Part shown: positions 1,345 to 43,221 of the stretch, piece after piece
Numbering within the stretch: the first letter of the stretch is position 1
How the letters are laid out: each line of letters opens with the position of its first letter
The notes under the pieces: generated by a model
Databases searched by the model: none
The model's input: only the letters and a program-made list of their open reading frames with translations
Told to the model about the DNA's origin: nothing
Translations under genes and position numbers: made by a program
Source: Candidatus Nomurabacteria bacterium
GTDB taxonomy: Bacteria; Patescibacteriota; Minisyncoccia; Phycocordibacterales; UBA9973
Direction: 5' to 3'
Length of the DNA stretch: 64,000 bases
NCBI GenBank assembly: GCA_963842815.1
Contig: CAWJHU010000001.1
Location: 179,020 to 243,019, forward strand

Positions 1345-4278
1345 TTAATAAATTCCGATTGTTTTTTCAAATAAACCTTCCGAAACAACATCGATTGAAC
1401 TTGCTCCTAGGGAGTCAAATTGATTGCCAGGAGTTTCATTAGCCCCTCCTGCTGGGACTAAGTCCCAAAGTTTTAATCTTTCTGGTCCCGTTAGTATTTT
1501 TTTATTTGTAGCATCCCCGGCATCCGATGAAAAATAGACAAAACTTAAGAAACCTGGACCAAGAACACTGTATTTATTAACAGGAGTATGGGTAGCAGGA
1601 TAGCCACTATTCCATGGGTCTGGCAAAGCGGTTCCCGCTTTTATAAAATTATTATAATCGTAAATTATAGGCAACGATGATGGATAAGTCATTCTTTCAA
1701 CGGAATTAACATCAAAATTATCCCAGTTAGCTGGAGGATTGCCAATTCCATTTAAGTCTACATGGGGAAATTTTAATGGCCCCCAAGTTCCACTCGCATT
1801 TATCCCGCCATATGTAAACGTGCCTATCGTTCCTGCTTCCATCCCCCCCAATCCCGGTTCCCACACAGGGCGGCTTATGACAGTCCAAGTTCCTGCCCCC
1901 GTTAAACTTTTCCAAGTTCCTACGCCATTTCCTATGGCCTTCCAAGTAGCAGTTCCTTCCCCTCCTGTTCCCGTAATGGCTGTCCAAGTTCCCGAATAAA
2001 TTCCGTTACCCCAATCCCCATTGCGCGGATTTTCAAGTTGCGCTTCGCAGCCGTTGGGTCCTTTTAGAAGAGTGTTGTACACATAATTTTTTTCATCAAC
2101 TATTTGTTTTGTTAAATTATCAACGCTGGCGATATCGGCTCCATTAACCATTTCCGCAGACAATCTTCCGAATGCGTCTATTTGAGGTTTTAAAAGACTT
2201 TCATATTCATCTCCTTTGGCCGGATAGCTATCATTCAAATCGTCCACTTGTTTTTTTATATACTCAAGAGTGTTTACAACACGCTTCAATGAAATTATTT
2301 TATCTTCATTGTCTTTTATCATTTGATTGTACCCCGTCAATTGATTAAAGTCATTAGTTGCTTCCTTGGCGACATCGGGCAAATAATCCGGACTAGAAAA
2401 ATACGTTTTATCCATAATATCAATATATCTACCTAATATTATATTCATAATATTAATGACTCCTTCTTGGCTTGATATGTTGTCATTCGTATTTGATGTT
2501 GTGTCCATAAAATTGGGCATATAACCTGTTAAAGAAGCAAACTCACGAGAATAATAACCTCTCATATAAAAACCAGCCATTTTGTCACCTTGGGTCCCTC
2601 CTCCCATTAAACTACTTAGAAATCCGCCAACAACAGGGATATTACTAACGATGTTGCTGACAACACCACCAATCGTACTCCCAGTGCTGCTATCGCCCCT
2701 ATCTGCGCTTTTCATTGATGATGTAACGTTTGTTAAAGTTGTTTGCGCGTCTTGTTCCCACCCCGGATGTGGTCCCGGGATGCAATAATCCAATTGATAG
2801 ATTGCCGGAATTAATCCGTAGGCATTGGTAACTCCCGTGCTAGGGTCAGTCGCGTAAGGCTTATCATCTGTTGTGGAATTTAGCTCTTTATTTTGCTGTA
2901 TGAGCTTATCGGAATAAGTTCTCTGTTCATCCACCAGAGCCTGGGTAAGGTCGGTGCGAATATCAAAATCCGGATTGGCCGCCAGCCAAGAACTTGTCAG
3001 TTGAGATGGCGTATAATCTTTTTCCGTTTGAGTTTGATATGCAACGCCTGAATCCACTGTACTGGTAGTGTATAAGGTTCCATCCGCTCCTTCTTCACTC
3101 GCATTAGCAAAACCTTTTTCCATAATAGTGGAAGAAAATTTAGACAAAAGCGCGTCTGTGATGGCGGCAATGGCGTCATTTAAATCCTGCACATTAAAAT
3201 AACTGGTACTCTGATAACTCATTACGTTTTGAGCCGCATAGGCCACCATAGAACCCGGCGTAACGTATTGCCAAGTTCCGCCTCCCTCTACACAAGGGTC
3301 TGGTTTTCCTGCCGCCAAAGCGGTATTTTTTTGTTGTAATGTAACACCTATGGTGCAACGATAATCTCCCAAAAATCCCTGAGCCTGTTGCAGAGTGTCA
3401 TGAAATTGTTGGGCAGTTGATTGAACTGTTCCCGCTAGTCTTTGTTGCAGTTCATTATCAGCCATCAATTGAAAACCAAGAGGATTATTAGCTGGAACTT
3501 GAGTCATAGCTGTCCAAGCATTCCATCCGCCCTGGCTAAAATCCGCCTTAAAAGTTTCACCGGAATATTCCGGAGTTGTTTGTTGAACAAGTTGGTCTAA
3601 AGAATATCTTACATTGTCTTGAAATTTATTATTGAAAGCGGCTGCCGTATTTTGCAACCAACCTTTACTGAATGGACCCACTCCTTTTATTTCCAGACCG
3701 AATTGCAATACTTCATTTTTAGCGATGTCTCCGAAAAATTTGCTCGGATTTTGCACAAAAGCCGGACTGCCATTGAAACCTTTCTTAATCCAGCTGACCG
3801 TGCTTTGTGTTAATTTTTGCAAAAGCATTTTAATCATCAGCCGTCCAATGCTGGCTATGCAAGTAGCATCATCAGAATTTGCTTTATCAGCCGCAGCATT
3901 AGCAGCCGAAGAATTGGCTATTTTCTGTAATAAATCGTTAGCATTTGGGCTATTGGTTTCAATGGAGGTAGCCGTACTTGCTGCTGAACTGGCTGTTTTA
4001 CCTAAACTTCCCGTTATTTCCCCGGGAGCGACAGGGTTGCCGTTGCTATCAACACCTGAACTAAACAAATTTCCAACCCCGCTAAACAAATTATTTATTG
4101 AACTATTTATTACATTCTTACATTGTGGCAGAGCAGCGATAGCCGGACCAAGTCCGGTTGCATACCCTGTCATGCTTTGCGCTTCAGCTTTTTTAGGAAT
4201 CAAACCCAAAGGCATCAGTATTGTGCTTACAATCAATAGAAATGAAATTATTGAATTATTAAGATATTTTTTACCCAT
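1345..4278 (-). CDS. Large secreted protein (977 aa), unknown function, Gly/Thr/Trp-rich C-terminal region (GTW repeats)
   Basis: Long ORF with N-terminal signal peptide MGKKYLNNSIISFLLIVSTILMPLGLIPKKAEA. It is tightly linked on the same strand to neighbouring secreted/membrane ORFs. I recognise no catalytic motif. Confidence 0.7.
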   Translation of the reverse strand: MGKKYLNNSIISFLLIVSTILMPLGLIPKKAEAQSMTGYATGLGPAIAALPQCKNVINSSINNLFSGVGNLFSSGVDSNGNPVAPGEITGSLGKTASSAASTATSIETNSPNANDLLQKIANSSAANAAADKANSDDATCIASIGRLMIKMLLQKLTQSTVSWIKKGFNGSPAFVQNPSKFFGDIAKNEVLQFGLEIKGVGPFSKGWLQNTAAAFNNKFQDNVRYSLDQLVQQTTPEYSGETFKADFSQGGWNAWTAMTQVPANNPLGFQLMADNELQQRLAGTVQSTAQQFHDTLQQAQGFLGDYRCTIGVTLQQKNTALAAGKPDPCVEGGGTWQYVTPGSMVAYAAQNVMSYQSTSYFNVQDLNDAIAAITDALLSKFSSTIMEKGFANASEEGADGTLYTTSTVDSGVAYQTQTEKDYTPSQLTSSWLAANPDFDIRTDLTQALVDEQRTYSDKLIQQNKELNSTTDDKPYATDPSTGVTNAYGLIPAIYQLDYCIPGPHPGWEQDAQTTLTNVTSSMKSADRGDSSTGSTIGGVVSNIVSNIPVVGGFLSSLMGGGTQGDKMAGFYMRGYYSREFASLTGYMPNFMDTTSNTNDNISSQEGVINIMNIILGRYIDIMDKTYFSSPDYLPDVAKEATNDFNQLTGYNQMIKDNEDKIISLKRVVNTLEYIKKQVDDLNDSYPAKGDEYESLLKPQIDAFGRLSAEMVNGADIASVDNLTKQIVDEKNYVYNTLLKGPNGCEAQLENPRNGDWGNGIYSGTWTAITGTGGEGTATWKAIGNGVGTWKSLTGAGTWTVISRPVWEPGLGGMEAGTIGTFTYGGINASGTWGPLKFPHVDLNGIGNPPANWDNFDVNSVERMTYPSSLPIIYDYNNFIKAGTALPDPWNSGYPATHTPVNKYSVLGPGFLSFVYFSSDAGDATNKKILTGPERLKLWDLVPAGGANETPGNQFDSLGASSIDVVSEGLFEKTIGIY

Positions 4279-4292
4279 TTTACTTTATTGTA

Positions 4293-4976
4293 TCATTGTT
4301 TTGATAGAAAAGTCTCTAAATCTCCCACTGCCGTGACTAAATCATTGCTATATTTTTGATATTCGGAAAGTCCGGAAAGCCCAACGATGGGGTCACTTGA
4401 AATTTCCCCCAAATTTGAAACACTGATGCCGGTGTTGTTGGCGCTATTGGCTATGCGCAAATGATAATCCGCCAAACTTTGCGGAACGCTCATATCCATT
4501 ATTTTTTTAGCAAAATCTTCATAGGCGTTTCCAATTGCCGACAATTTGCTGTATTTATCGGCATTGTCTGCCGTTCCGCTTGCAGGACTTGCAGCAAGTC
4601 CGTTGCTTACAATGCTTAATTCATCCCCCAACCCGCTGTTTGCCTGATAGTTTTTAAATAAATTTTTCACATCCTCGTAGTATTTTTGTTTGGAAGCAGA
4701 ATCATCAGTGGTGCTCATTTTTACATCCGCTGCCGAGTAGCGGTCAATCAAATTTGGATTCACTATATTTTGTCCGAGAGAATTGGAAAAACTATTTATG
4801 GCATCGCTGTCGCTTTGTCCGGAAGATTTCAATGCCATATAGCTAGCAAAAAATTGCTGAGCGAATTTATCCGTCTCGGTCATATTTTGTTCTTCTGCGC
4901 TGGCGCTTTCGGATATATTCAATTCTTTCTTTTTATTTTCTATATAGGTGGCATCCGGAGTATTATTGAAAGTCAT
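4293..4976 (-). CDS. Hypothetical protein (227 aa); probably the C-terminal part of a ~330-aa membrane-anchored protein whose N-terminus is ORF 4963..5274 (frame break in an A7/T7 homopolymer at 4976..4982)
   Basis: The ORF overlaps the upstream ORF by 14 nt in a different frame. Removing one base from the T7 run (plus strand 4976..4982) fuses ...WGTGPEQK to MTFNNTPD.... Confidence 0.5.
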   Translation of the reverse strand: MTFNNTPDATYIENKKKELNISESASAEEQNMTETDKFAQQFFASYMALKSSGQSDSDAINSFSNSLGQNIVNPNLIDRYSAADVKMSTTDDSASKQKYYEDVKNLFKNYQANSGLGDELSIVSNGLAASPASGTADNADKYSKLSAIGNAYEDFAKKIMDMSVPQSLADYHLRIANSANNTGISVSNLGEISSDPIVGLSGLSEYQKYSNDLVTAVGDLETFLSKQ

Positions 4977-5713: not shown

Positions 5714-6580
5714 CTACTCTTTTTTGTTGATATCTGCGTCTTTTACAAGATAAATCCAATCCATAAGCGAAAGTTCTTCCGCTCTTTTGTTTTTAAGGGT
5801 ATTTTCAGAGGATTTTTTTAGAAAAATTTGTGAATTTTTCAAATTTGACGACAGTTTTTTCCTTTTGTGGGCAAATCCGGCGCGAACTATCTCCCAAAAT
5901 TGTTTTTCATCTATTTTATTTTCGGTAAAAAGTTTTCTGGAAATATTTTTTATGGCAATTACAGCTGAATCCACTTTTGGAGCCGGTGAAAAATATCTTG
6001 CCGGCACCTTCATAATCATTTAGGTTCTCCATATGCTTTTACGGAGATTGAAAGAATACTTTCTTTTTTATCCCGAGCCATTATTCTTTGGGCCACTTCG
6101 TTTTGCACCATCAGAATCATTCTTTCCGGCTGGTTTTTTTCCGTCAGAAATTTTTTCAATATGGCGCCGGTAATGTTGTAAGGAATATTGGCGATAATTT
6201 TATAAAAACATGGCATGAAGTTTTTTTCATGGTCTGGCCGGGATAGGGACCCGGGGATCCGAGGACCTGAAAAAAATTTGCAGGCCATGTTTTTAATATC
6301 AGCGTTCAAAATATCTTCATTCATTAAAATTAATTTTTTATTTTTGATTTCCTCGGAAAATTTTTCTTGAAGCAGTTGAAAAAGATCTCGATCTTTTTCA
6401 ACTGCAATTACGCATCCGGCTTTTTCCAAAAGTTTTTCCGTGAGTACCCCTTTCCCTGGTCCGATTTCCAAAATAATATCTTCGCTCGAAATTTCTCCGG
6501 CTTCAACAATTTTATTGAGCGCAGGAATCTGATTTCAAAAAATTTTGCCCCAATGATTTTTTTGCTTTATGTATCATATG
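5714..6580 (-). CDS. ksgA: 16S rRNA (adenine1518/1519-N6)-dimethyltransferase KsgA/RsmA; two single-base frame breaks at homopolymers plus an in-frame 42-bp palindromic insertion
   Basis: Translations give [14 protein letters not shown] (frame C), then [44 protein letters not shown]..., then (third frame) [23 protein letters not shown]. These are the KsgA motifs GQNFL, EIGPG, NxPYNI and PPKVDS. The breaks are at an A-run near 6537..6546 and an A3 run at ~6019..6021. The inserted peptide [14 protein letters not shown] lies between the conserved D and the NIPYNI motif. Confidence 0.75.
6229..6270. repeat. 42-bp palindromic mini-element copy A (ATGGTCTGGCCGGGATAGGGACCCGGGGATCCGAGGACCTGA), in-frame inside ksgA, flanked by T-run/A-run
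   Basis: Near-identical to 8290..8331 (one G/A difference). It has internal inverted symmetry (GGTC...GACC, CCGGG..CCCGG), is GC-rich in an AT-rich genome, and its length is a multiple of 3. Confidence 0.8.
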
Positions 6581-8585
6581 TAAATTGTTTTTATTCCACC
6601 CTTCTCTCCTTCCTTTTCTAATAAATCTCCCGGAATATCGGAAATAAATTCGGAAGGAGTATTTATTTGGCGCGAACCGAAAATGGTGCGGAAATTCGCG
6701 AAAGATAAAAATAATTTTTCTTTGGCGCGAGTAAGGGCGACATAAAAAAGCCGGCGTTCTTCTTCTCTATCTTCGGCAGTTTTTATTTCACCGTCTCTTT
6801 CGTGCGGGAAAAGTCCGTCTTCCAGGCCGGTGATGAAAACATATTTAAATTCAAGTCCTTTTGAAGCATGCACAGTCATTAATTTCACCGCATTTTTTCG
6901 TCTTTTTTATTTTCCGTAATCATTAGCGAGTCTTGGTCTGAGGCCAGAGATGCATCTTCCAAAAGTTTTTCAATTCCCATTCCATCCTTTAAATTATCAT
7001 ATTTTAAGGCCAAAGTGGCCAATTCCTTTATGTTTTCCAATCTTTCCATATCTTCTTCCGTTCCCGCTTTAAGTTCATCTTCAATGCCGGATTTTTTTAC
7101 CGTGAATTTTATAACATCGGATGCTTTTTTATTTTTTATTTTTTCTTTTATTTCTTCCAGTGTTTTGTAAAAATTATCAATTTTTATTTTTATTTTTATC
7201 GGCAAACTTTCTTTTTCTCCGGCAAAAATTTTAGCAAAGTCACTTTCCCTATTCCCCGTGCCGGGAAATTTATAATTCTTTTTATATCCGAAAGACTTTC
7301 CGGATTAAGGCCGCGCGAAGATAAGCAAGAGTGTCTTTAATTTCTTTTCTCTCAAAAAATTTAACACCCAAAACTTGATATGGAATATTGTATTGAAGCA
7401 TTGCTTCTTCCAGCGCGCGCGATTGAAAATTTGCGCGGTACAAAATTGCAATTTCAGACATCGACTCATTCGATCCTATCTAGTATTTCCAAAATTTTGT
7501 CGCGACAAATCCGCTTCGTCGTTTTCGTCTAGCGCTTCATAAAAACCATTTTTTCGCCATTTTATTTTTGGTAAATAAATTTTTATCCGGCCTGATATTT
7601 ATTTTTCTTTGATTATTTCATTGGCCGCTTCCAAAATATTTTGCGTGGAACGGTAATTTTCTTCCAATAAAATTATTTTCGCTTTCGGATAATCTTTTTC
7701 AAAACTCAAAATATTTTTTAAATTTGCTCCGCGCCAGGAATAAATATTTTGGTCGGCGTCTCCCACCACGCAGATATTTTTATTATTTTCCGGAAAGCAA
7801 GTTTGGACATCAAATATTGCACTTCATTGGTGTCTTGATATTCATCAATGTGAATATATTCCCATTTTTCCTGATAAATTTTTCTGATTTCTTTATTTTC
7901 TTTCAGTAATTTTGTCGCTTTCAAAAGCAAATCATCAAAATCCAAAGAATTTTCTTTCGTTTTTTTTTTTTCATACAAACTCCACACTTGCGCCACGATT
8001 TTACCCAAGTAATCCGTTGCTTTTTCTGCATAATCTGCAAGATGGGTAAATTTCCCTTTTTCCCGGCTGATTATATTTTTTATTTTTTTCGGGTCGTATT
8101 GTTTCGGGTCCAATCCAAGTTCTTTCATGGCTTCTTTTATCAAGGTCGTTGAATCTGATTCATCTAAAATAGTAAAATGTTTGGTCAGCCCCAACAATTC
8201 GCGCATTTTCTTTGATTATATAAACTCCCAGAGAATGAAAAGTGCTAATAAAAGGCCTACTAACAACTTCGCCGGTAATACTTTTTTGAATGGTCTGGCC
8301 GGGATAGGGACCCGGGAATCCGAGGACCTGAGAAAAAGCATTACCGGCGAAGTTTGTTTTTATTGCCGAATTAATTCTTTCTTGCATTTCCTTGGCGGCT
8401 TTATTAGTAAAAGTAACAGCTAAAATTTTCTCCGGCGCCACCCCGTTTTTTATCAGATTTAGTATTCTGTGCGTGATTGTTTTAGTTTTCCCCGCCCCCG
8501 CTCCCGCCACAATCAAAAGCGGTCCCTCCATATGCATGGCCGCTTCCCTTTGTTTGTTATTGAGTTCCGATAAATGGTCTGACAT
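6574..8585 (-). CDS. uvrD: UvrD/PcrA-family ATP-dependent DNA helicase, ~670 aa, split into at least 4 frames by single-base homopolymer indels; carries in-frame 42-bp palindromic insertion
   Basis: The N-terminal fragment has Walker [11 protein letters not shown] and TFTNKAA. The middle has DEYQDTN and [39 protein letters not shown] (translated by me from 7230..7480). The C-terminal fragment has [24 protein letters not shown] and [15 protein letters not shown]. Removing one G from the G4 run at ~8178..8181 restores [18 protein letters not shown]. The inserted peptide [14 protein letters not shown] precedes ISTFHSLGV. Confidence 0.75.
8290..8331. repeat. 42-bp palindromic mini-element copy B (ATGGTCTGGCCGGGATAGGGACCCGGGAATCCGAGGACCTGA), in-frame inside uvrD
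   Basis: Same as copy A, with the same TTTTT...AAAAA flanks. It is translated in a different frame from copy A. Confidence 0.8.
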
Positions 8586-8639
8586 TCATCCAATATAACA
8601 TAAAAACTCATTTTGTTATTGATATTACTAGATTTATCT

Positions 8640-8880
8640 AAAATTCATCTCTAGGCTGGAGGAAGCTAGACTTTCTCCGGTTATCCACACCCCGATTGAC
8701 TTGAGTGAGGAAGTGAGCTACCCTTAATGTAGCCCTGGACAGGAAGTATGGAATAAATTGGCTGAACGGGCGAAACGACAGTAACCATCGTGAGAACCTT
8801 ATCCGCCATATGGCGGGTGCAGTACAATTCAGGTCGTCCTGTAATTCTACCCTTATATACTAATGTTTTTTTTGGGGTAA
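8640..8880 (+). ncRNA. Candidate structured cis-regulatory leader RNA (possible c-di-AMP/ydaO-type riboswitch) upstream of LysM-M23 peptidase
   Basis: A ~350-nt non-coding gap follows the uvrD start. It is unusually GC-balanced and contains the hairpins CCGCCATATGGCGG and the segment ACGGGCGAAACGACAGUAACCAUCGUGAGAACC, which resembles the 3' conserved core of the ydaO riboswitch as I recall it. The downstream cell-wall hydrolase is a typical ydaO target. Confidence 0.3.
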
Positions 8881-8968
8881 GGAGGAAATCTCGCGGTAAT
8901 TAATTTGTTTTATAAAACCTCAATTTAAAATATACAGCTTTATTCTGGCCTTTTCCCTGTTATCTGGG

Positions 8969-10018
8969 GTGTTTTTTGCGCCCTTTACAGCAAAAGCCGG
9001 TTTTTTCTCTGCCCTTCTAGGAAACGAAGCCTCGGCTGATGCAACAGCAACAGATTCTTCCACCAAAAATTGCCAAACGATGAATCTTCTTCAAGCAAAT
9101 GTCTCTTCTGCCCCGATTTTACAAGACAAAGACAACACGGACAATGACGGAGGGGTTAAAAGCGACACAAATGTTAACATTTCTGGGAACGCTCTTTCCC
9201 CCGCAACCAGCCACGTCGGAGCATCGGACAATTTAAACACCGGAGATTCACCCACCGACCAAATAAGTGTTTACGTGGTAAGGAAAGGCGATTCTATTAC
9301 TTGGATAGCGCAGACTTTCGGAGTTTCTGTTGATACCATCTATTGGGCCAATAATATGAAAAAAGGAGACAAGCTTGTCGAGGGAGACACGCTTTTTATT
9401 TTGCCGGTTTCCGGGGTTAAGGTGACAGTTGCTAAGGGAGATACATTAAAAAGCATAGCCAAAAAGTATAACGTGGATGTTTCCGATATAGCCGGCTATA
9501 ATGGAATTCCTGAAAATGCAAAATTGGCAGTTGGAGATGAACTCATTATTCCTGATGGGGAAATGGCGGATGAAGGTTCGGCTGTATCAGTCCCGAAAAC
9601 AAATTCTGGCAGTTATATAAGAACCCCTATTGTTTATATTCCGGGATACTTTATTAACCCTGTTCCTGATTATAAATATAGAAGTCAGGGTCTTCATGAC
9701 CACGGAGAGGCTATTGATTTAGCGGCAAATAAAGGATCATCCATATTGGCTTCAGCCGCCGGAACAATTATTTTTGCCCGCAACGGTTATAACGGAGGCT
9801 ACGGCAACATGGTTATCATTGACCATCCGAACGGAACACAAACTCTCTATGGTCATATGTCAAAAATTTTAATTCATACCGGCGATGATGTTTATCAGGG
9901 ACAATTAATCGGCTTAGTTGGTTCTACTGGCCACTCAACCGGACCTCATTTGCATTTCAGAGTAATGGGAGCAAGAAATCCCGGAGGAGATACCCCTATG
10001 TCCTGGGCAACTCAATAG
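8969..10018 (+). CDS. LysM-domain (x2) M23 family metallopeptidase (cell-wall hydrolase)
   Basis: There are two LysM-like segments (VVRKGDSITWIAQTFGVSVDTIYWANN and VTVAKGDTLKSIAKKYNVDVSDIAGYNGI). The M23 motifs are HDHGEAIDLA ... GSTGHSTGPHLHF. The hydrophobic N-terminus suggests a signal peptide. The true start may lie upstream of the GTG at 8969. Confidence 0.8.
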   Translation: MFFAPFTAKAGFFSALLGNEASADATATDSSTKNCQTMNLLQANVSSAPILQDKDNTDNDGGVKSDTNVNISGNALSPATSHVGASDNLNTGDSPTDQISVYVVRKGDSITWIAQTFGVSVDTIYWANNMKKGDKLVEGDTLFILPVSGVKVTVAKGDTLKSIAKKYNVDVSDIAGYNGIPENAKLAVGDELIIPDGEMADEGSAVSVPKTNSGSYIRTPIVYIPGYFINPVPDYKYRSQGLHDHGEAIDLAANKGSSILASAAGTIIFARNGYNGGYGNMVIIDHPNGTQTLYGHMSKILIHTGDDVYQGQLIGLVGSTGHSTGPHLHFRVMGARNPGGDTPMSWATQ

Positions 10019-10061
10019 AGAAAAAAGAATATTAATGCTTTTTAGAAAATTTCAAAAACAA

Positions 10062-10140
10062 TGTTTTTAAGGGGTTTCGAGCGCGACGGCGCGAGAATTT
10101 CAGGATTTTTTAAGCTTCAAAAAATCCGTACCGGCAAAAA
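10062..10140. repeat. Intergenic repeat copy 1 (79 bp) with GC-rich 17-mer core GAGCGCGACGGCGCGAG, embedded in a ~110-nt long hairpin (arms 10047..10068 / 10136..10157)
   Basis: Near-exact duplicate at 15426..15504. The 17-mer recurs (reverse orientation) at 22186..22202 inside another long hairpin. Internal hairpin GGATTTTTTAAG/CTTCAAAAAATCC. Confidence 0.8.
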
Positions 10141-10157
10141 TATTGTTTTTGAAATTT

Positions 10158-10883
10158 TTATACTCCTGCCAATTTTATTGCACTGTATAAAACAGTGACC
10201 CCCAATATTGTAGCAACTGTGGTCCACATTGTGGGGTGATTATGATGGCTTTCAGGCAGTAAATCCGAGGCTCCAATATACAGAAAAAACCCACTAAATA
10301 TGGCTAAAATCACGCCTAGAGTGGCTTCAGAAACCGAAAAAAACAAAGTAGAAGTTATTCCCAAAACCGGAGCAATGGCATCAACAGAGAGCCATTTGAA
10401 TGCCTGTTTTTGTGTACCAGAATTTTTTAAAATCATATTTACCGTATTTATTCCGTCGGAAAAATCATGTACCAAGACGGCAACAGCTACAATGGCGCCG
10501 ACGGCGCTTGATACTTGAAAAGCCAAGCCGATGGCAACGCCATCCAAAAAACTGTGTATAGACAAACTTCCGGCCCCGAGCAACCCCCTCCTATTAGGAG
10601 GACAATTTTCGCTGTTGTGGTCGGAATGCGAATGAAAGAAAAAAAGTCTGTCCAAAAGCATGTAAACAATAAAACCAAGAGCCACAATGGAAGTAATAAA
10701 AGCGATATCATAACTTTGTTTCCCTAGGCTCAATGCCTCCGGCAATAAATCAAAAAAGGCTACGCCGATAACTGCTCCGGCCGAAAAACCTAAAATCAAA
10801 TGTAACTTATCTTTAAAACGCAAAGCAAAAATTCCGCCTAAAAAAGTGGAAACCAATGTCGCTATGCTTATCAAAATAATCAT
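10158..10883 (-). CDS. ZIP family metal (zinc) transporter, ZupT-like
   Basis: Multi-TM protein with a His-rich loop HSHSDHNSENCPP and the HDFSDG / HNHP motifs typical of ZIP transporters. Confidence 0.65.
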   Translation of the reverse strand: MIILISIATLVSTFLGGIFALRFKDKLHLILGFSAGAVIGVAFFDLLPEALSLGKQSYDIAFITSIVALGFIVYMLLDRLFFFHSHSDHNSENCPPNRRGLLGAGSLSIHSFLDGVAIGLAFQVSSAVGAIVAVAVLVHDFSDGINTVNMILKNSGTQKQAFKWLSVDAIAPVLGITSTLFFSVSEATLGVILAIFSGFFLYIGASDLLPESHHNHPTMWTTVATILGVTVLYSAIKLAGV

Positions 10884-15369: not shown

Positions 15370-15425
15370 ATATTATTATGATAGCATAAAGTTTCACGGA
15401 TTTATTAGTAAAAAATAGGAAAATA

Positions 15426-15504
15426 TCTTTTTAAGGGGTTTCGAGCGCGACGGCGCGAGAATTTCAGGATTTTTTAAGCTTCAAAAAATCCGTACCGGCA
15501 AAAA
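15426..15504. repeat. Intergenic repeat copy 2 (79 bp) with 17-mer core, inside a long hairpin
   Basis: Near-identical to 10062..10140. Flanking arms AAAATATCTTTTT / AAAAAGATGTTTT are inverted. Confidence 0.8.
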
Positions 15505-15519
15505 GATGTTTTTTATTTT

Positions 15520-16434
15520 TTACTTTCTGCTGTGAAACTTTTTATGCACATCCAATAATTGTTTGTCGGTAACGTGCGTGTAGATTTGAGTGGTGGCAAT
15601 ATTTGAATGCCCTAGCATCATTTGTACACTCCTGATATCTGCGCCATTTTGCAATAAGTCGGTAGCGAAGCAATGTCTGATAATATGCGGAGTAACTTTT
15701 TTTGAAATGCCGGCCCTGATGGCATATTGCTTTACGATTCTCTCAATGGATCTCTTGGTCAATGGGCCGGTTTCTTTTTCAGAAGTTTCCTTTCCTACTT
15801 TTACAAAAAGGGCGTCGTCCATATCTTTTCGCAACGTCAGATATTTTTTAATAGCATTTTTCGCTTCTTGGGATATAAAAACTACGCGAACTTTTCCGCC
15901 TTTTCCGCGAATGGAAAATTGTTCAGAATGGAGATCAATATCATTAGTTAAACTGCAAAGTTCCGAAACGCGGAGACCGGTAGAAAAAAGAAGTTCCAAG
16001 ATAGCTTTATCTCGGAGTGATTTTATATCATTTCCTTTGGGAGCATCCAACAAACGGTGGAGTTCTGTTTGAGAAATTAAATCCAGAGATCTTTCGCTAA
16101 TCTTAGCCAATTCTATCCGCTCGGCGGACATAGTTTCTATTTCTTGCCGTGCCAGATATTTTAAAAATGCCCTGATGGCTATCAGGTAATAATTTTGAGT
16201 TTTCTTAGTTAAAGTTTCGCCGGTTGCCCTATTGTTGCCGGTGGATTGGCGGTTGAGCCAAAGGCGGAATTCTCGCACCACATTGTCGTTTATTTTTGCC
16301 GGATTATCATTTTTTATAAAATCTAAAAAGCGAGTGAGATAATGGTCGTAGTTTCTGACAGTATTGAGCGCTCGGCCTCTTTCTATTTCCACATATTCCA
16401 AAAATTGAGTTTTGAGCTGTTTTAAAGATGCCAT
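15520..16434 (-). CDS. xerD: Tyrosine recombinase XerC/XerD
   Basis: Phage-integrase N-terminal SAM-like domain plus C-terminal R..HxxR..Y motifs (RHCFATDLLQNGADIRSVQMMLGHSNIATTQIYTHV). Confidence 0.8.
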   Translation of the reverse strand: MASLKQLKTQFLEYVEIERGRALNTVRNYDHYLTRFLDFIKNDNPAKINDNVVREFRLWLNRQSTGNNRATGETLTKKTQNYYLIAIRAFLKYLARQEIETMSAERIELAKISERSLDLISQTELHRLLDAPKGNDIKSLRDKAILELLFSTGLRVSELCSLTNDIDLHSEQFSIRGKGGKVRVVFISQEAKNAIKKYLTLRKDMDDALFVKVGKETSEKETGPLTKRSIERIVKQYAIRAGISKKVTPHIIRHCFATDLLQNGADIRSVQMMLGHSNIATTQIYTHVTDKQLLDVHKKFHSRK

Positions 16435-24231: not shown

Positions 24232-24248
24232 TTATCCACAGGTGGGGT

Positions 24249-24277
24249 GTTGACAGTGAACGCTCGTTCACTTATAC
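24249..24277 (+). promoter_or_regulatory. Sigma70 promoter TTGACA-17-TATACT with an embedded LexA (Cheo-type) SOS box GAACgctcGTTC at 24257..24268
   Basis: The perfect inverted repeat GTGAACGCTCGTTCAC sits between the -35 and -10 boxes, immediately upstream of the small ORF + lexA. Confidence 0.7.
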
Positions 24278-24328
24278 TATTTACATAGGTTAGTCGGGAC
24301 CTTTTATAAAAATAAATAGTATAAATAT

Positions 24329-24528: not shown

Positions 24529-25095
24529 ATGACAAACCAGTATCAAGCAAAATTAGAAACTTTCTACGAAAAAAATAAAAGGATGCCCACCTATTCCGAA
24601 ATGATGGAACTTTTCAGTTTCAAATCCAAAAATGCCATTTTTAAAATCGTAGAAAAACTCGTGGAAGCGGGGATTGTCGCCAAGGACCACTTGGGCAGGC
24701 TCGTACCGACTAAAACTTTTAGCGAAATACCAAAGTTGGGTTTTGTCACTGCCGGACTTCCCGCCAGTGTGGAAGAAGAATTGACTGATACGGTGAACTT
24801 GGATGACTTTTTAATAAAAAATAAACCGTTGACCTATATGTTGGAAGTAGACGGCGATTCAATGATAGACGCGCATATAGAAAAAGGGGATATGGTGCTG
24901 GTGGAGAAGACCAGCCAGGCTAAAGACGGACAAATCGTCATTGCCGAAGTGGATGGGGAATTCACCATGAAATATTTTCACAAAGATGGCCCTAAGGCCT
25001 GGCTGGAACCGGCCAATAAAAATTATAAACCAATCTACCCGACCCAGAGCTTGAATGTGATAGCAGTATTAAAAGCAGTGGTTAGGAAATACTAG
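24529..25095 (+). CDS. lexA: LexA repressor (S24 peptidase)
   Basis: N-terminal wHTH. The C-terminal S24 region is MLEVDGDSMIDAHIEKGDMVLVEK ... (Ser-Lys dyad context). Confidence 0.8.
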   Translation: MTNQYQAKLETFYEKNKRMPTYSEMMELFSFKSKNAIFKIVEKLVEAGIVAKDHLGRLVPTKTFSEIPKLGFVTAGLPASVEEELTDTVNLDDFLIKNKPLTYMLEVDGDSMIDAHIEKGDMVLVEKTSQAKDGQIVIAEVDGEFTMKYFHKDGPKAWLEPANKNYKPIYPTQSLNVIAVLKAVVRKY

Positions 25096-37448: not shown

Positions 37449-37743
37449 TTAACAGGGTTAATAAAATTATATTCACTCCGTTCATTAATTTTAATTAAAA
37501 AGCCCTGTTGCGACAGGACTTGTACAATGCATAGATTAGCATAATGTGTGGTTAAATGCAAGGCATCATAAACCCCCTCCCAGCCTCTCCCTTATCAGGG
37601 CGAAGAGAAGGAAAGAAAAAATTCCCCCTGACAAAAGGGTTAGGGGTTATACCCCATAATATAAAGCTAGAATGGAGCTCAGGGATAAAAGAAGCCAGGG
37701 TGTTTTAGGTTGCAATTTTTTTAATTAATAGTAAAGTATATTT

Positions 37744-38418
37744 ATGGATTCTCTCAAGAAAGTAATCGTATTGTTTTCCGGAGGAAAAGATTCTTCGGCT
37801 GCTGTTGTTGAAATGATACGTGCTGGATATAGAATTAAGTTATTTACCTATTCAGAATTTCCAGGATTAGTTGGTCCAAATGGCGATTCCCCCTCTAGTA
37901 TTAGGTATAAAGAATTGCTAAATTCTTTTCCGCAATATATTGACACTGATCGGGTAATTAGAATAAATTCGTATCTAGTTAGAAAATTAGCAATAGAAAA
38001 AACAAACAGCACTCACATAGTTTATCCAATAGCACTTGCGCTTGCAATACACGTAGATGCAATTTTATATTGCTTAGAGAACGATATTTATGATATTGCT
38101 TCTGGAAATTCTGGATATCAAGCAAAAGAGGATAGATATATTGAACAACAAAGCAACTTCTGTGAACTTATGAGAGCTTTTTTAGCGGAATATGGCATTA
38201 CATACCATACACCAGTCATAAAAAAATCAAAAAAAGAAATAATGGATATTTTGGAACAATGTAGCATTAGTTCAAACTCGCTTGAAGGTAAATCTGTATT
38301 CGGTGCTGTCCCATTTGAAGTAGATAAAGCATTGGATTTTTGGGAAGAATCTATTCCTATATGTAGAAAATATATTGCAAACTTTAGTCATATAGAAAAA
38401 AAAGAAAAAAATAATTAG
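37744..38418 (+). CDS. PP-loop (N-type ATP pyrophosphatase) superfamily protein, QueC/ExsB-like but lacking C-terminal Zn cluster
   Basis: VIVLFSGGKDSSAAVV carries the SGGxDS PP-loop. 224 aa. Confidence 0.55.
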   Translation: MDSLKKVIVLFSGGKDSSAAVVEMIRAGYRIKLFTYSEFPGLVGPNGDSPSSIRYKELLNSFPQYIDTDRVIRINSYLVRKLAIEKTNSTHIVYPIALALAIHVDAILYCLENDIYDIASGNSGYQAKEDRYIEQQSNFCELMRAFLAEYGITYHTPVIKKSKKEIMDILEQCSISSNSLEGKSVFGAVPFEVDKALDFWEESIPICRKYIANFSHIEKKEKNN

Positions 38419-38420
38419 AA

Positions 38421-38882
38421 ATGATGATTTCAGAAAAAAATTATTTAGTTATAAGCAAGAAATTATTAGATACTGCGCGCAAAGATGGCATAGAGCGAAA
38501 ATCAGTAAAACTTGTAATAAAGAAAAAAAATACTGTGCTTATGTTAAAGCGAGCAAAAAATGACCACTTCCCGGATTTATACGAGTTGCCTGGAGGTAGT
38601 CTTAATGAAAATGAAGATATTTTTACAGGAGCTAAAAGAGAACTATACGAAGAAACGGGGTTTCTAATACAAGATTTTATTTCTCAGCTTAAAAACATTG
38701 ATTTTAATTCAATCTCTAACCAAAAAAAATGTCGCCAATATACATTTATTGTTTTACCTATTGGAAAAGACATAATTTTAAATCCAAATGAACATAGTGA
38801 ATATAAATGGGTATCTAGCGCCGAACTGGAAAATTTATATATATTTCCTAAAATTAGAATAATGATTAAAAAAATTCTTTGA
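38421..38882 (+). CDS. NUDIX hydrolase
   Basis: Nudix box GGSLNENEDIFTGAKRELYEETGF (GX5EX7REUXEEXGU). The start is 3 nt after the upstream gene. Confidence 0.75.
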   Translation: MMISEKNYLVISKKLLDTARKDGIERKSVKLVIKKKNTVLMLKRAKNDHFPDLYELPGGSLNENEDIFTGAKRELYEETGFLIQDFISQLKNIDFNSISNQKKCRQYTFIVLPIGKDIILNPNEHSEYKWVSSAELENLYIFPKIRIMIKKIL

Positions 38883-38963
38883 AAATAAATTGCTATTGCA
38901 ATTAATTATAGCAGTCATATAAAAAAGAAAACCTGTGACAGAGTGTTGCATATGCCACAGGTC

Positions 38964-39422
38964 TCACGAACAATATTTTCTACGATGATACTCTCCATGA
39001 AGTAGTTCGTTTACATCATTAAAAGAAACGGTTGTGATTTGTATTTCAAATGACACTCCGTTTTTATATGCAATGAATTGCAGAAGTCGTAGCACTTTCC
39101 CATTAATGCTGGGACATTCTTTTGGTTTTTTGATGTAATCATGATCAAGAAAACCGGAAAATGTTTGTGAAATTTTTTCAAGAACTGCATACGCCTCATC
39201 AATTGATTCCACAAGAATGCGTATGCCATACACATCATCAATGGAGAAAATATTCTTTGTATTTTTCAGACACATCTTTTTCCTTAATATCTCTGAATCT
39301 TTTATGCGGGAAATGATGAACAGATTTTTTACAACAGCACCCACGATACTTTTTACTTCTTCCGCAAGCATATCAATCGTACAACCTATATGCTGTTTAT
39401 ATATTGATATATTATTACACAT
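38964..39422 (-). CDS. Small RelA/SpoT-domain nucleotidyltransferase-like protein (152 aa), possible small alarmone synthetase / toxSAS-like, catalytic completeness uncertain
   Basis: SRIKDSEIL, DVYGIRILVESIDEAYAVL, DYIKKPKE, FEIQITT, HGEYHRRKY are collinear with RelA_SpoT domain motifs (RxKxxxS, D-x-G-x-R, DYIxxPK, EIQIRT, HxxYK). Confidence 0.45.
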   Translation of the reverse strand: MCNNISIYKQHIGCTIDMLAEEVKSIVGAVVKNLFIISRIKDSEILRKKMCLKNTKNIFSIDDVYGIRILVESIDEAYAVLEKISQTFSGFLDHDYIKKPKECPSINGKVLRLLQFIAYKNGVSFEIQITTVSFNDVNELLHGEYHRRKYCS

Positions 39423-39522
39423 GGCTACAGTTGCCTCCTTTCTGTTGTGAATGTGTATACACAGAGAAAATTATTCTCTCTGTTCTCCGTATATTACTCT
39501 AAATTGTTTTAATCATTTTGTC

Positions 39523-39603
39523 AAACTTGCCAAGCGGAACTTATTTCTACAAGCTCCAAACAGGAGCCAATGTAGAAACAAAAAAGATGCTTTTAGTTAA
39601 ATA
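39523..39603 (+). pseudogene. 3' remnant of a fourth CTD-cassette gene (encodes ...[27 protein letters not shown])
   Basis: ~80 nt nearly identical to the 3' ends of 40348..41256 and 44047..44955. It is followed by the same terminator type as after 42271..43152. Confidence 0.7.
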
Positions 39604-39665
39604 AAATACAAACCAAACCCGTAAGTTTGGTTTTTTATTTTTCTTTTATGATAAAATATAAAAAT

Positions 39666-40040
39666 ATGGAAAAAGATTTTGATAAATGGAACGAATTAAA
39701 GAAAAAAATAGATGTTCGTAATTCAGTATATGTGTCTGAAAGGGATATATGGTTTTGTTCCGTTGGTTTAAATATTGGAAGCGAACAAAGCGGCAAACAT
39801 GAACTTTTTGAACGTCCGGTTTTAGTTGTTAAAGAAGTTACATCAAATACATTTATTGGCATACCTTTAACTTCAAACAGAAAGAAAGGCTCCTGGTACG
39901 TGGAAATAAAATCTACTGACTCCTCCGCTATTATTTCCCAAATAAAATTATTTGATACAAGACGGCTTGCCCGTAAAATAGGGGTTATTTCAATTGAAGA
40001 ATTTGAAATTATAAAAAAGAAATTAAAAGATTATATATAA
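39666..40040 (+). CDS. PemK/MazF-family endoribonuclease toxin-like protein (no adjacent antitoxin seen)
   Basis: SGKHELFERPVLVVKEVTSNTFIGIPLTS matches the MazF/PemK fold signature. It occupies the slot held by an NYN gene after cassette 2. Confidence 0.55.
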   Translation: MEKDFDKWNELKKKIDVRNSVYVSERDIWFCSVGLNIGSEQSGKHELFERPVLVVKEVTSNTFIGIPLTSNRKKGSWYVEIKSTDSSAIISQIKLFDTRRLARKIGVISIEEFEIIKKKLKDYI

Positions 40041-40177
40041 ACAACGAAACCCCCGTAAGGGGGTTTCTCGGAGGCCGAAGCCAAAGTTGTCTACAATATA
40101 GCAAAATCAATATTGAAAGTCAAGCAAAAATATGAAGGCCATTAATTTTGGAAGATTGGGTACATAAAAGGCCACAA

Positions 40178-40347
40178 AATAAGGCTAGAATTGGGGTTGG
40201 GGATAAAGGGGGCTAAAGGGCTTGACATTTGGGTTGATTAGGTGTATTATAATACACAGATAAAGGTTTGTCAATTTTCTTCGAAAAATAAAACAGCTTT
40301 GGCGGATATCCCGCACAAGGCATCACATTTAACTTATAGGAGGCGTT
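40178..40347 (+). promoter_or_regulatory. Repeated promoter + 5' leader module, copy 1 (-35 TTGACA 40222..40227, -10 TATTAT 40245..40250, AGGAGG 40338..40343)
   Basis: ~170-bp block near-identical to 42099..42270 and 43863..44046. The untranslated leader between the -10 and the SD is conserved over ~95 nt. Confidence 0.75.
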
Positions 40348-41256
40348 ATGAAAACGTCATTAAGTATATTAGTTCTTTTGGTAATTTTTGCAGTCGTATT
40401 CTTTACTTCTGCTTTCTCGCAACAACAGATTCAAAACAATGTAGTTAGCAGTAATTGGGGTTTCAATGGTGGGTATTATAATAACCTTGATGCCCAATAT
40501 ACTAAATTTTTACGGGACGCCGATGGCGGAGCTGAATTTTGGATGTCTGGCGGAACGTTCTCGTTTGCACCTAGAATAATGGGTACAGACATGTGGTTTT
40601 TAGGGACTTTTTCTTCTCCATGGCTTCTCGGCGATTCGCTTTCCCTTGAAGTTCAACTTCAATGGAAAGCAGGTGATATCAAGCGCGTTTCTGTTCACAT
40701 AGGTCTTACGGATACATCCATAGGCTCATATTACCCGGGGGAATACAAAATAATTACCTTAGATTCATCCAGGCAAAGACTTTCTTGGGATATGTCTGAA
40801 TTAAAAAAAGCAGGATGGCGGTCAATATCCCAAATGGATTTAGCCTTTGACGCAATCACAACGGATTCTTGCAATGTGGTGTTGCGGATGAGAGGAATGA
40901 ATATGGTTTCCACTGACAGTCTCAGTAGAAAAACCGATATTGCTTTTAATCTCATTTCCACCGGAGTCAAAGAAGTTTCTGCTCAAACTCCAAAAGGGTT
41001 TGCTCTGGAACAGAATTATCCCAATCCGTTCAATCCTTCAACGAAAATTTCTTACTCATTAAAAAACACAGAAAAAGTTTATCTTTCAGTGTTCAATACA
41101 TTGGGTCAAGAAATTGCCGTTTTGGTAAATGACACTCAGAATGCCGGATCTCATGAAGTTATGTTTTCCGCATCTAATTTACCAAGTGGAACATATTTCT
41201 ACCGCCTGCAAACAGGAGCCAATGTAGAAACAAAAAAGATGCTTCTCATAAAATGA
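40348..41256 (+). CDS. Secreted protein with T9SS/Por-type C-terminal sorting-domain-like tail, cassette paralog 1
   Basis: Signal peptide MKTSLSILVLLVIFAVVFFTSAFSQ. C-terminal LEQNYPNPFNPSTKISYSL...VFNTLGQEIAVLV...[13 protein letters not shown]...KKMLLIK. Confidence 0.75.
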   Translation: MKTSLSILVLLVIFAVVFFTSAFSQQQIQNNVVSSNWGFNGGYYNNLDAQYTKFLRDADGGAEFWMSGGTFSFAPRIMGTDMWFLGTFSSPWLLGDSLSLEVQLQWKAGDIKRVSVHIGLTDTSIGSYYPGEYKIITLDSSRQRLSWDMSELKKAGWRSISQMDLAFDAITTDSCNVVLRMRGMNMVSTDSLSRKTDIAFNLISTGVKEVSAQTPKGFALEQNYPNPFNPSTKISYSLKNTEKVYLSVFNTLGQEIAVLVNDTQNAGSHEVMFSASNLPSGTYFYRLQTGANVETKKMLLIK

Positions 41257-41282
41257 GAAGACATCTAGAATTACAGTGCCCG

Positions 41283-41316
41283 ACCTTACAAAGGTTTGGG
41301 CATTTTTTTTTATTTA
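41283..41316. terminator. Bidirectional terminator hairpin GCCCGACC...GGTTTGGGC + T-run
   Basis: Between convergent genes. Confidence 0.55.
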
Positions 41317-41326
41317 ATAACTAAAT

Positions 41327-41896
41327 TCAAAAAATAAATTGTTGCAAATCTGTACTGCCAAATACTCTTTGATAATCACAATCTTTTATTAAACCAACTG
41401 AAGTAGAGTTTGAAAACCCAACATATTCAACTTTTTTCCCTTTTGATTGAACATATTTAATTGCTGGTATTAAATCTGTATCCGAGCTAACAATTATTGC
41501 TGTGTCATATTTATTTTCAATTCCATCAATTACCAAATCAATAGCTATTTTTACATCAACTCCTTTTTCTCTTATTTGATGGTCATAAACAATTTTTCCT
41601 CTCTCTATAACAAAACCGTCATTTTCAAGTATTGATAAAAATTTTTGTTGATTAGCCACCATTTCTGAAGATTTTTTGGTATGGTTATAGTTTCTTACAA
41701 TTCCCACATAATACCCCTTACCGCATAAATTTCTATTGGAAGCCAGAAAAAGAGCAAACTCTTTATAATTAAATGCTCTTCCGGCAGGTATAATTTTAGG
41801 TATTATTGATTCATCTTTTGAATTTTTAGATTCCTTGAAAAGAGCTTTATATGTATTGCCTCCATCTATATAAATTTTTACTCTCTCTGGTGTCAT
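41327..41896 (-). CDS. NYN-domain (LabA-like) protein, paralog 2
   Basis: KIYIDGGNTY ... IIVSSDTDLIPAI. Confidence 0.65.
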   Translation of the reverse strand: MTPERVKIYIDGGNTYKALFKESKNSKDESIIPKIIPAGRAFNYKEFALFLASNRNLCGKGYYVGIVRNYNHTKKSSEMVANQQKFLSILENDGFVIERGKIVYDHQIREKGVDVKIAIDLVIDGIENKYDTAIIVSSDTDLIPAIKYVQSKGKKVEYVGFSNSTSVGLIKDCDYQRVFGSTDLQQFIF

Positions 41897-43152: not shown

Positions 43153-43221
43153 TATTTAAATACTAAACATAAACCAAACCTGCAAGTTTGGTTTTTTATT
43201 TTTCCGTGATAAAATTTATAA

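Follow-up and report, generated by a model that had tools for sequence, protein, structure and literature searches.

In the 64,000-nucleotide stretch of a Candidatus Nomurabacteria genome analyzed here (contig CAWJHU010000001.1, positions 179,020 to 243,019; hereafter the window), the gene of a LysM-M23 peptidoglycan hydrolase (8912-10018, plus strand; Pfam Peptidase_M23 8.4e-31, LysM 1.2e-22) is preceded by a transcribed leader of roughly 180 nt (about 8731-8911, plus strand, with a predicted 5' end), which belongs to an uncatalogued family of cis-acting leader RNAs specific to the LysM-M23 gene of Paceibacteria/Nomurabacteria-type Patescibacteria. This is a new family of orphan cis-regulatory leaders, represented by about 85 distinct examples, and its unusual feature is a strict coupling to initiation at a non-AUG codon; no prior description of the RNA was found in the searchable literature.

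The interval 8600-8968, which a first-pass annotation of the same DNA had taken for one long leader, is composite: it includes the promoter of a divergent gene (uvrD-like promoter region, 8586-8620), then a factor site and the promoter of the LysM-M23 gene (8681-8724, plus strand), and finally the transcribed leader, which lies inside it. The features that had drawn attention to the interval are all present in the sequence, namely a gap of ~370 nt devoid of open reading frames (ORFs; none of at least 60 aa occurs between the uvrD-like start at 8585 on the minus strand and GTG 8969), a raised G+C content (0.49 at 8650-8799 vs about 0.30-0.40 in the flanks), a hairpin, a stretch reminiscent of a known riboswitch, and a GGAGG sequence; in particular, CCGCCATATGGCGG is located at 8803-8816, ACGGGCGAAACGACAGTAACCATCGTGAGAACC at 8767-8798, and GGAGG at 8881-8885.

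The homologues of the LysM-M23 protein number thousands and the closest are named Patescibacteria, Paceibacteria, Nomurabacteria, or Minisyncoccia. A genome scan with an alignment of 29 homologues gave 80 loci, and in about 50 of these nhmmer and blastn located the sequence corresponding to window positions ~8680-8968 immediately before the orthologue, with nhmmer E-values as low as 1e-49; the leader keeps 68-82% nucleotide identity, while identity between the orthologous proteins reaches only 45-65%. When metagenomes were scanned with the 17-mer RGTAACCATCGYRAGAA, 120 stretches were obtained, 44 of which have GGTC[GA]T within 140 nt downstream; 42 of the 44, retrieved by the RNA motif alone, carry the rest of the element, the other two (L183 and L194) being chance matches as judged by reading. 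A covariance model, R1, built on three helices from 32 compact homologues with the window excluded, gives a single match in the window (8728-8920, 109.5 bits, E=5.7e-23) and matches 87 loci, one per locus. An M23 homologue lies immediately downstream in 84 of the 87 matches, and the other three contigs contain little downstream sequence (two less than 150 nt, one 163 nt). Neither R1 nor a hidden Markov model (HMM) of the 5' part of the leader revealed second copies or other target genes in the window and the loci. The R1 score, together with the covarying helices described below, bears out the proposal of the first-pass annotation that a conserved, structured, cis-acting leader precedes the LysM-M23 gene.

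The leader, whose elements all lie on the plus strand, opens with a purine-rich 5' segment of ~45 nt (8731-8776; YCUGRANAGRRGUAYGG...UGRCYGAA...) that is shared with a class of short leaders considered further on. RNAalifold detects no Watson-Crick consensus structure in it (energy 0.0), the manual pairings attempted (UUCU/AGAA, GGU/ACC, AUGG/CCAU, CUG/CAG) each failed on covariation, and the only new helix given by a mutual-information scan is H_A2. After this segment a tentative helix, H_O, pairs GACAG (8777-8781) with UUGUU (8905-8909), whose end is separated from the start codon by 2 nt and which belongs to the strongly conserved block U(U/A)G-NNN-UUAUAAAA; 88.7% of the H_O cells are paired, with few double changes. 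A near-invariant UAACCA linker (8782-8787) leads to the best long-range helix, H_A, formed by UCGUGAGA (8788-8795) and UCUCGCGG (8889-8896), in which 94.8% of the cells are paired and the exchanges include GC, GU, AU, and UA at the column pair 73/337 and UG, UA, and CG at 72/338. H_A2 joins CCU (8797-8799; consensus CCUU) to AGG (8883-8885), which is followed by an AAA junction (8886-8888), and its C-G pair is replaced by U-A in 8 sequences. The hairpin H_B (8819-8842) pairs GCAG 8819-8822 with CUGU 8839-8842, is 92-97% paired, with CAG/CUG changing to GAG/CUC and CAA/UUG, and exposes in its loop a near-invariant GGUCGUC (8832-8838), whose GGUC is invariant in the 32-sequence seed A3. The hairpin H_C (8845-8882) consists of UUCUACCCU (8845-8853) and GGGGUAAGG (8874-8882) around a U-rich loop of 18-20 nt; double changes affect nine of its ten pairs, UUCUA/UAGAA being replaced by UUCCA/UGGGA, and the loop falls into length classes.

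H_A2, H_B, and H_C meet in a tight three-way junction, and the closing helix around this junction is supported by covariation in the aligned sequences. A possible pseudoknot would connect the ACC of the linker (8784-8786) with the GGU of the H_B loop (8832-8834); its three core pairs are almost invariant (one never varies and two vary one-sidedly in 1-3 sequences), its fourth pair is unsupported, and the candidate is beyond covariation testing because both sides are near-invariant. A second pseudoknot candidate is UGAC/GUC. The alignment contains the invariant sequences GUAACC.UCG and GGUCGU, and invariant blocks extend from about 8731 to the start codon (GACAGUAACCAUCG, GGUCGUCCUG, AUCUCGCG, with UUAUAAAAC around the start codon itself).

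Between H_A2 and H_B the window has an optional hairpin, (A)UCCGCC-AUAU-GGCGG(GU) at 8801-8818, which replaces the consensus UGUU. It is present in about 8-14 of 82 homologues, most of which have only UGUU at this position, and in 8 clear cases the stems differ (CCGCC/GGCGG, UCGCC/GGCGA, CCGCU/AGCGG, CCGUCC../..GGACGG); the perfect hairpin highlighted by the first-pass annotation thus exists, at 8803-8816, but is a dispensable insert. The GGAGG sequence, proposed there as a Shine-Dalgarno (SD) sequence, fits this role less well than it seemed to: 26 nt separate it from the start codon, and its bases are taken up by pairing in the core of the junction, where it is shared between H_C (the first two G) and H_A2 (the remaining AGG); moreover, the consensus at the site is AAAAGG, AAAGG is usual in homologues, and GG is missing in several.

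As a separate observation, nearly the same G+C-rich mini-hairpin (CCGCCAGCUGGCGG type) occurs in L169, L179, L133, L191, and L031 as well as at window positions 8803-8816, at insertion sites that differ by genome (junction, H_B loop, or H_C loop), as if it were a small mobile palindrome.

The structural model was evaluated on an alignment of 87 sequences (A4), on which the counts of compensatory changes are not event-based. In the 24-pair core formed by H_A, H_B, and H_C, 90.3% of the cells contain standard pairs, compared with 39-53% when the 3' partners are slid by 1-3 columns, and 17 of the 24 pairs show double changes; for the extended structure of 37 pairs, which adds H_O, H_A2, and the candidate pseudoknot, the corresponding values are 89.8%, 40-50%, and 24 of 37. 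None of 500 shuffles reached any of these measures in either case. A plain MAFFT alignment of the 32 close sequences of the seed gives a similar contrast (89% paired vs 40-53% when slid), RNAalifold on gap-stripped alignments independently recovers H_O, H_A, H_A2, H_B, and H_C, and the minimum free energy (MFE) fold of the window's own sequence from 8731 to 8935 contains H_A, the optional hairpin, H_B, and H_C. Hairpins of variable length are restricted to the loops and the junction. The leader shows hallmarks like those of riboswitches: stems that covary, nucleotides of the junction and loops that do not vary, and hairpins at the periphery that do. The MFE of 8640-8885 is not significant against shuffles (z = -0.99; 33 of 200 shuffles fold as well) because this stretch includes promoter DNA.

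Other kinds of RNA element were considered and set aside. ARAGORN finds no tRNA-like or tmRNA-like fold; the resemblance of CUGAAGAG..CGAAA to a hammerhead core (CUGANGA...GAAA) fails, as the window has CUGGACA and homologues vary at essential positions. A scan for terminators or attenuators between the promoter and the start codon found none, its single hit (8955-8969) lying inside the coding region, and no alternative, mutually exclusive fold of the leader was found.

The most probable start codon of the LysM-M23 gene is AUA at 8912-8914 (plus strand). In the frame of the protein a TAA stop is located at 8897-8899, and there is no ATG, GTG, or TTG between it and 8969, the GTG from which the plus-strand ORF, encoding two or three LysM domains and one Peptidase_M23 domain, had been listed. 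Translation from 8912 gives (I/M)KPQFKIYSFILAFSLLSGVFFAPFTAKA, which has the form of a signal peptide and aligns with homologues starting MRPQFKIYS.. and MRTLPKIYS... The codon homologous to 8912 was compared in 73 unique long leaders and reads ATA in 68, ATT in 4, and ATC in 1, hence AUH throughout; 47 of the 73 have no in-frame ATG, GTG, or TTG between this codon and the nearest upstream in-frame stop, which in 25 lies within 4 codons. A LysM-M23 enzyme has to be exported, and its signal would be lost with a start at 8969 or with the 312-aa form of the annotation. As the signal peptide is not preceded by any canonical start, gene callers let this protein (P0001, 312 aa) and many homologues begin at various codons farther inside, and the public models are consequently truncated at the N-terminus. 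On the basis of these comparisons translation most likely starts at AUA 8912 and not at GTG 8969, which entails a correction of gene models: public annotations start the protein 20-57 codons too late, with loss of the signal peptide.

Several other starts were examined and discarded. In about a third of homologues GUG 8790 reads GCG, GUA, GUU, or CAA, and from its covariation with the H_A partner it is constrained as part of a helix and not as a start codon. Upstream AUG codons are not conserved; no upstream ORF is conserved in any frame in the 73 long leaders, which disfavors a leader peptide and termination-reinitiation at AUAA. A UUG start followed by a +1 slip on UUUU would require an ORF that is not conserved, and the UUG is a UAG in about 11 homologues; an internal promoter at TAATTT/TAGTTT before the AUA is contradicted by the lack of conservation of the TAnnnT box.

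The coupling between leader and start codon becomes evident from eight short-leader loci (L006, L021, L025, L028, L032, L033, L034, and L039), which have the same upstream box and promoter and a leader of about 65 nt without the junction domain. The 3' part of the short leader is homologous to that of the long class, GAUGGUACCAUCAUGAGAA corresponding to GACAGUAACCAUCGUGAGAA, and the homologous start codon is ATG in all eight. The correlation is thus perfect, with an AUH start in 73 of 73 leaders having the junction domain vs 0 of 8 lacking it. In a rough neighbor-joining (NJ) tree of the C-terminal 260 residues, seven of the eight short-leader loci form one group together with L019 and L037 within the clade of long leaders, in which L025 occupies a different place; this distribution suggests that the short class results from a secondary deletion of the junction domain between short repeats A(G/A)A(A)CCU.

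Distant orthologues (L061-L079, Kaiserbacteria, Zambryskibacteria, and Taylorbacteria-type) have a different and longer leader, about 330 nt upstream of the match, with a conserved hairpin AUGGCUCAACAGAGCCAU; several of these leaders open with GUACCUCUGAAUGGCAGA, resembling the 5' end of the short class. Box-like TTATCCACA or GTCCACA sequences are found near their promoters in either orientation, and 11 of these loci scanned at E<=1 gave no Rfam match in the leader.

The accessibility of the initiation region was estimated as mean unpaired probability in the thermodynamic ensemble of the 73 leaders, relative to the AUA. Positions -33 to -27 and -22 to -16 are mostly paired (0.10-0.18), positions -10 to -3 have values of 0.26-0.44, and from the AUA through +18 the RNA is largely open (0.6-0.8). 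An SD-like tetramer within 22 nt upstream precedes only 9 of the 36 ORFs of at least 200 aa in the window, a count in which the first in-frame ATG was taken as start, unchecked; many ORFs in the window show a -10 box of TGCTAnnAT type ending 5-8 nt before the first in-frame ATG, a leaderless-type geometry, which suggests that leaderless mRNAs dominate in this genome and that SD sequences are rarely used. Unlike most genes in the window, the units of a tandem array at about 37600-45000 (about 1.8-1.9 kb per gene unit, 64-99% identity between copies) each have AGGAGG before the ATG, and TTATCCCCA boxes are found nearby.

The promoter of the LysM-M23 gene (8696-8724, plus strand) consists of a -35 element TTGACT (8696-8701), a 17-nt spacer, and a -10 element TACCCT (8719-8724); owing to the weak -10 it escaped a simple promoter scan. 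Of 47 loci that were scored, nearly all have TTGACT or a near variant and a -10 of TAYCCT/TAYCAT/TATTCT type; the two hexamers are 17 nt apart in most loci and 16 nt apart in five, and the pattern TTGACT-N16-18-TAYNNT occurs only 4 times in the 64-kb window. From the conservation of the hexamers and of the 16-18-nt spacing in orthologous loci this is a sigma-70-type promoter, whose geometry places the transcription start near 8731.

Upstream of the -35 element, at 8681-8689 (plus strand), the sequence TTATCCACA is a perfect match to the DnaA-box 9-mer consensus TTATNCACA. The box is conserved as TTWTCCMCA: TTATCCACA or TTTTCCACA (a few TT[AT]TCCCCA) is present in 43 of the 47 loci, and in nearly all loci the distance from its start to the downstream -35 is exactly 15 or 25 nt, two values that differ by one helical turn. 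The composite of box, -35, and -10 occurs 55 times in 514 kb (loci plus window), and 54 of the 55 sites are LysM-M23 promoters. The upstream site, being in helical phase, is probably an activator site, for which DnaA would be the candidate binder, another factor with a similar site being possible. It recalls DnaA-box-controlled promoters, known from dnaA, nrd, and sda-type regulation, in the perfect 9-mer, its fixed helical phase upstream of the -35, and the poor -10; it differs in being a single box without oriC context and in its target, here a cell-wall hydrolase gene, with a LexA-like operon as second target in the window. This second target has the only other composite site, at window 24232, and its operon includes the gene of a Peptidase_S24 (LexA-like) protein, downstream of the site.

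There (24232-24280) the box TTATCCACA is followed after 9 nt by TTGACA, the space between -35 and -10 contains a GAAC-N4-GTTC palindrome (GTGAACGCTCGTTCAC), and a 64-aa ORF and the Peptidase_S24 (LexA-like) gene (24529-25095) follow; further copies of TTATCCACA are at 11641 and 62836 (minus strand). Directly upstream of the box at the LysM-M23 promoter, a predicted 12-bp hairpin (GGCUGGAGGAAG/CUUUCUCCGGUU, 8654-8682, plus strand) is probably outside the transcript; its sequence is not conserved, and analogous hairpins, identified by eye, adjoin the box in L037, L029, and L022.

The conserved pairing from -33 to -3, the open AUA, the rare use of SD sequences, and the absence of a terminator favor control of translation initiation, and the reading adopted here, with a confidence only a little better than even, is that of an orphan cis-regulatory leader controlling initiation at a weak AUA start codon. 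Transcription would start near 8731 from TTGACT-17-TACCCT, with its weak -10 and an activator, possibly DnaA, bound at TTATCCACA. In the transcript the stacked helices H_O, H_A, and H_A2 would close a three-way junction carrying H_B and H_C, and the folded domain would set how often ribosomes initiate at the weak, non-canonical AUA, positions -33 to -3 being held in helices and the AUA with the first 20 coding nucleotides being left open. An effector, either a small ligand or an RNA-binding protein, may recognize the invariant junction and loop nucleotides and shift this balance, and the outcome would be a tuned production of a potentially autolytic enzyme.

A number of points weigh against this reading. 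Initiation at AUA is deduced from homology and reading-frame logic and was not observed, and the transcription start rests on promoter geometry only. No effector was identified, the only hint of a ligand in the neighborhood being a convergent ZIP zinc transporter gene, and the restriction to one gene and one lineage is equally typical of protein-bound leaders and of metabolite riboswitches. With respect to the structure, the A4 alignment was fitted to the model, so that its pair counts lean towards it; the plain MAFFT alignment has little variation and gives only weak covariation statistics; H_O consists mostly of A-U and G-U pairs with little covariation; and the 5' segment is strongly conserved yet unexplained. 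Finally, no alternative fold was found, and the element could be constitutive.

The first-pass annotation had proposed the leader as a candidate member of the ydaO/kimA class of cyclic di-AMP (c-di-AMP) riboswitches (RF00379), whose aptamer would fold on binding c-di-AMP and thereby turn off the hydrolase gene, and had named a missing Rfam hit and a missing conserved structure in homologous leaders as arguments against itself; the former is indeed missing, yet the latter is found. At gathering thresholds, Rfam 15 recognizes only five tRNAs in the whole 64-kb window; a permissive cmscan of 8500-9100 (E<=10) returned four minus-strand noise matches, with neither RF00379 nor the lysM or M23 motifs among them; and a permissive scan at E<=1 found nothing in the leaders of 22 orthologous loci (11 of the long and short classes and 11 more distant). 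The leader is not placed in RF00379 because no scan matched any leader, and a divergent ydaO/kimA riboswitch is considered very unlikely. The two have in common that they precede a cell-wall hydrolase gene, that their fold is complex and its unpaired nucleotides are highly conserved, and that they share a short local resemblance, GACAG.UAACC.UCGU.AG. This resemblance concerns the highly conserved GACAGUAACCAUCGUGAG (8777-8794), which is similar to the ydaO 3' core GACAGCUAACCUCGUAAG, with ..CCGACAGCUAACCUCGUAAGCG.. as the conserved core string, a likeness that does not amount to a test. In published crystal structures ydaO combines two three-helix junctions, in a pseudo-two-fold arrangement, with a pseudoknot and two ligand pockets; the leader described here has one junction only, a 5' half without Watson-Crick structure, and no terminator-type expression platform, and the look-alike stretch is used differently, its halves supplying the 5' strands of H_O and H_A, which close with downstream sequence.

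The genomic context does speak for this class to some extent, as lysM and cell-wall hydrolase genes are commonly preceded by riboswitches of the ydaO type, an association stated by Weinberg et al. 2017 (PMC5737381), and the gene here is of the LysM-M23 type. However, four orphan structured RNAs located in the 5' untranslated regions (UTRs) of lysM and M23 peptidase genes and probably cis-regulatory (the M23 and lysM-TM7 motifs, along with lysM-Actino and lysM-Prevotella), suspected of c-di-AMP signaling from the genes that they precede, did not bind c-di-AMP, and an M23 RNA possibly bound something in yeast extract (NAR 45:10811, PMC5737381). The present leader resembles these motifs, one of which (lysM-TM7) comes from a Patescibacteria lineage (PMC5737381), as an orphan leader in the 5' UTR of the same gene classes; it is longer, with a three-way junction, a conserved unstructured 5' segment, and a non-AUG start, and it is a separate family because no lysM/M23 Rfam model matches the window or the 22 orthologous loci.

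Among the remaining explanations, the one that carries most weight, though unlikely in itself, is a protein operator, in which for instance a KH-domain or CsrA-like regulator of cell-envelope genes would bind the 5' segment and the junction and repress or activate translation. It would account for the limitation of the element to a single orthologous gene in one lineage, for a 45-nt conserved segment that has no Watson-Crick structure and is common to leader classes differing downstream, and for the AAGGA-type motif in the junction; however, the gene neighborhood (uvrD-like, ZIP, and tRNA genes) links no candidate protein to it, and ligand aptamers just as typically have a multi-helix junction in which unpaired nucleotides are invariant and peripheral inserts are tolerated. 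Somewhat less probable is a constitutive initiation element, whose junction domain would recruit or position the ribosome for the AUA, with the helix ending at -3 filling the SD/anti-SD chamber. The perfect coupling of AUH to the domain and of AUG to its absence, the scarcity of SD-like tetramers beside common leaderless-type boxes, the open AUA with its downstream nucleotides, and the lack of an alternative structure speak for such an element, but structure between -33 and -3 would normally hinder 30S binding, the conserved 5' segment also occurs in the AUG-using short class, which argues for another, probably regulatory, role of at least this part, and no bacterial precedent is known to us. 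A related and more speculative proposal, rated slightly lower still, sees in the junction domain a bacterial element of internal initiation, which would dock on the ribosome so that the AUA comes to lie in the P site, domain and AUH forming one unit, in a lineage that has largely given up SD pairing in favor of leaderless-type mRNAs; this would explain the switch to AUG in every lineage that deleted the domain, and the 5' segment and the DnaA-box promoter would then add cell-cycle control.

Known initiation regions offer partial parallels to a domain of this kind. In Escherichia coli infC a weak AUU start codon is discriminated by IF3, within an ordinary SD context and without a large structured domain; the AUH start is shared, with a third position that mismatches the initiator tRNA and would make output intrinsically low and sensitive to the initiation machinery, whereas here AUH is coupled to a junction domain of roughly 135 nt ending 2-3 nt upstream. 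In phage T4 gene 38 a hairpin lies between SD and AUG, and a dicistrovirus intergenic-region (IGR) internal ribosome entry site (IRES) reportedly acts on bacterial ribosomes (work of Colussi and colleagues in 2015). The likeness, a folded RNA immediately 5' of the initiation codon, also a non-AUG one, is a functional analogy of speculative nature.

Two further explanations are extremely improbable. The junction domain, taken as roughly 120 nt, might be an intervening sequence, an intron or a translational-bypass gap, with the upstream AUC-GUG-AGA-ACC joined to the coding region: the H_A 5' strand AUC GUG AGA ACC UUU is almost the same as the first codons of the short class, AUC AUG AGA ACU UUA, the domain is bordered by the motif A(G/A)A(A)CCU, and PMC13011429 describes introns as frequent in Patescibacteria. 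GUG 8790, however, is not conserved and covaries with its H_A partner, no in-frame start is conserved upstream, no group I or II intron family matches in the permissive scans of 8500-9100 and of 11 orthologous loci and the domain is far too small for either, and for a bypass like that of gene 60 the take-off and landing codons are not consistently matched. Conservation might instead be exerted on the DNA alone, through overlapping protein-binding sites of two divergent genes, the RNA folds being incidental, as the upstream third of the flagged interval is DNA signal (box, -35, -10) and the start codon is surrounded by a conserved block, GTTTTATAAAAC, that forms a palindrome at the DNA level; against this stand the double changes in both the core and the extended helices, the insertion of hairpins of different sequence only at loop positions, and the variation of the divergent gene, which is uvrD-like in only 28 of 80 loci, while the leader stays. 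A role as an RNA-processing or stability element is also listed among the rivals of initiation control.

The divergent gene of the window carries a promoter-like site, ATAACA-16-TATATT with a TG (8592-8619, minus strand, from a promoter scan), whose -10 ends 6 nt before ATG 8585, again a leaderless-type geometry, and which is not part of the LysM-M23 element. The ORF that follows it (8160-8585, minus strand) matches Pfam UvrD-helicase (1.2e-34), and the whole UvrD/PcrA-like helicase gene (6574-8585, minus strand) is broken into at least five consecutive ORFs in different frames, a split that could be due to frameshifts, to pseudogene status, or to errors of assembly. Two copies of a 56-nt G+C-rich element (..ATGGTCTGGCCGGGATAGGGACCCGGG.ATCCGAGGACCTGA..), 93% identical, are present (6221-6276 and 8282-8337), each inside a minus-strand coding ORF, for a KsgA-like rRNA dimethylase and for the UvrD-like helicase, respectively; the second copy is bordered by the inverted repeat ACTTCGCCGGTAAT/ATTACCGGCGAAGT, and the element looks like a small insertion element tolerated in frame. 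On the other side of the LysM-M23 gene, a ZIP-family zinc transporter gene (10158-10883, minus strand) is convergent to it; M23 peptidases are zinc enzymes. The same arrangement is found in 45 of loci L001-L060 (at about 3600-4500) and in none of L061-L080, and the ZIP paralogues are of two types, at 75-90% and 26-31% identity. A 124-nt direct repeat of 84% identity is located just downstream of the LysM-M23 gene (10056-10179) and at 15420-15543.

Patescibacteria are a very large and mostly uncultivated part of bacterial diversity, whose gene regulation is almost unknown, and the leader described here would control their one conserved LysM-M23 peptidoglycan hydrolase, which is probably needed for division. 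The family joins the small set of orphan leaders found before lysM and M23 genes without known ligands. The perfect DnaA-type box in the promoter hints that wall cleavage may be coupled to replication, and the long leaders with AUA and those with AUG in which the junction domain is absent constitute a natural contrast; if the RNA truly enables, and does not merely throttle, initiation at AUA, it would represent a new mode of bacterial translation initiation.

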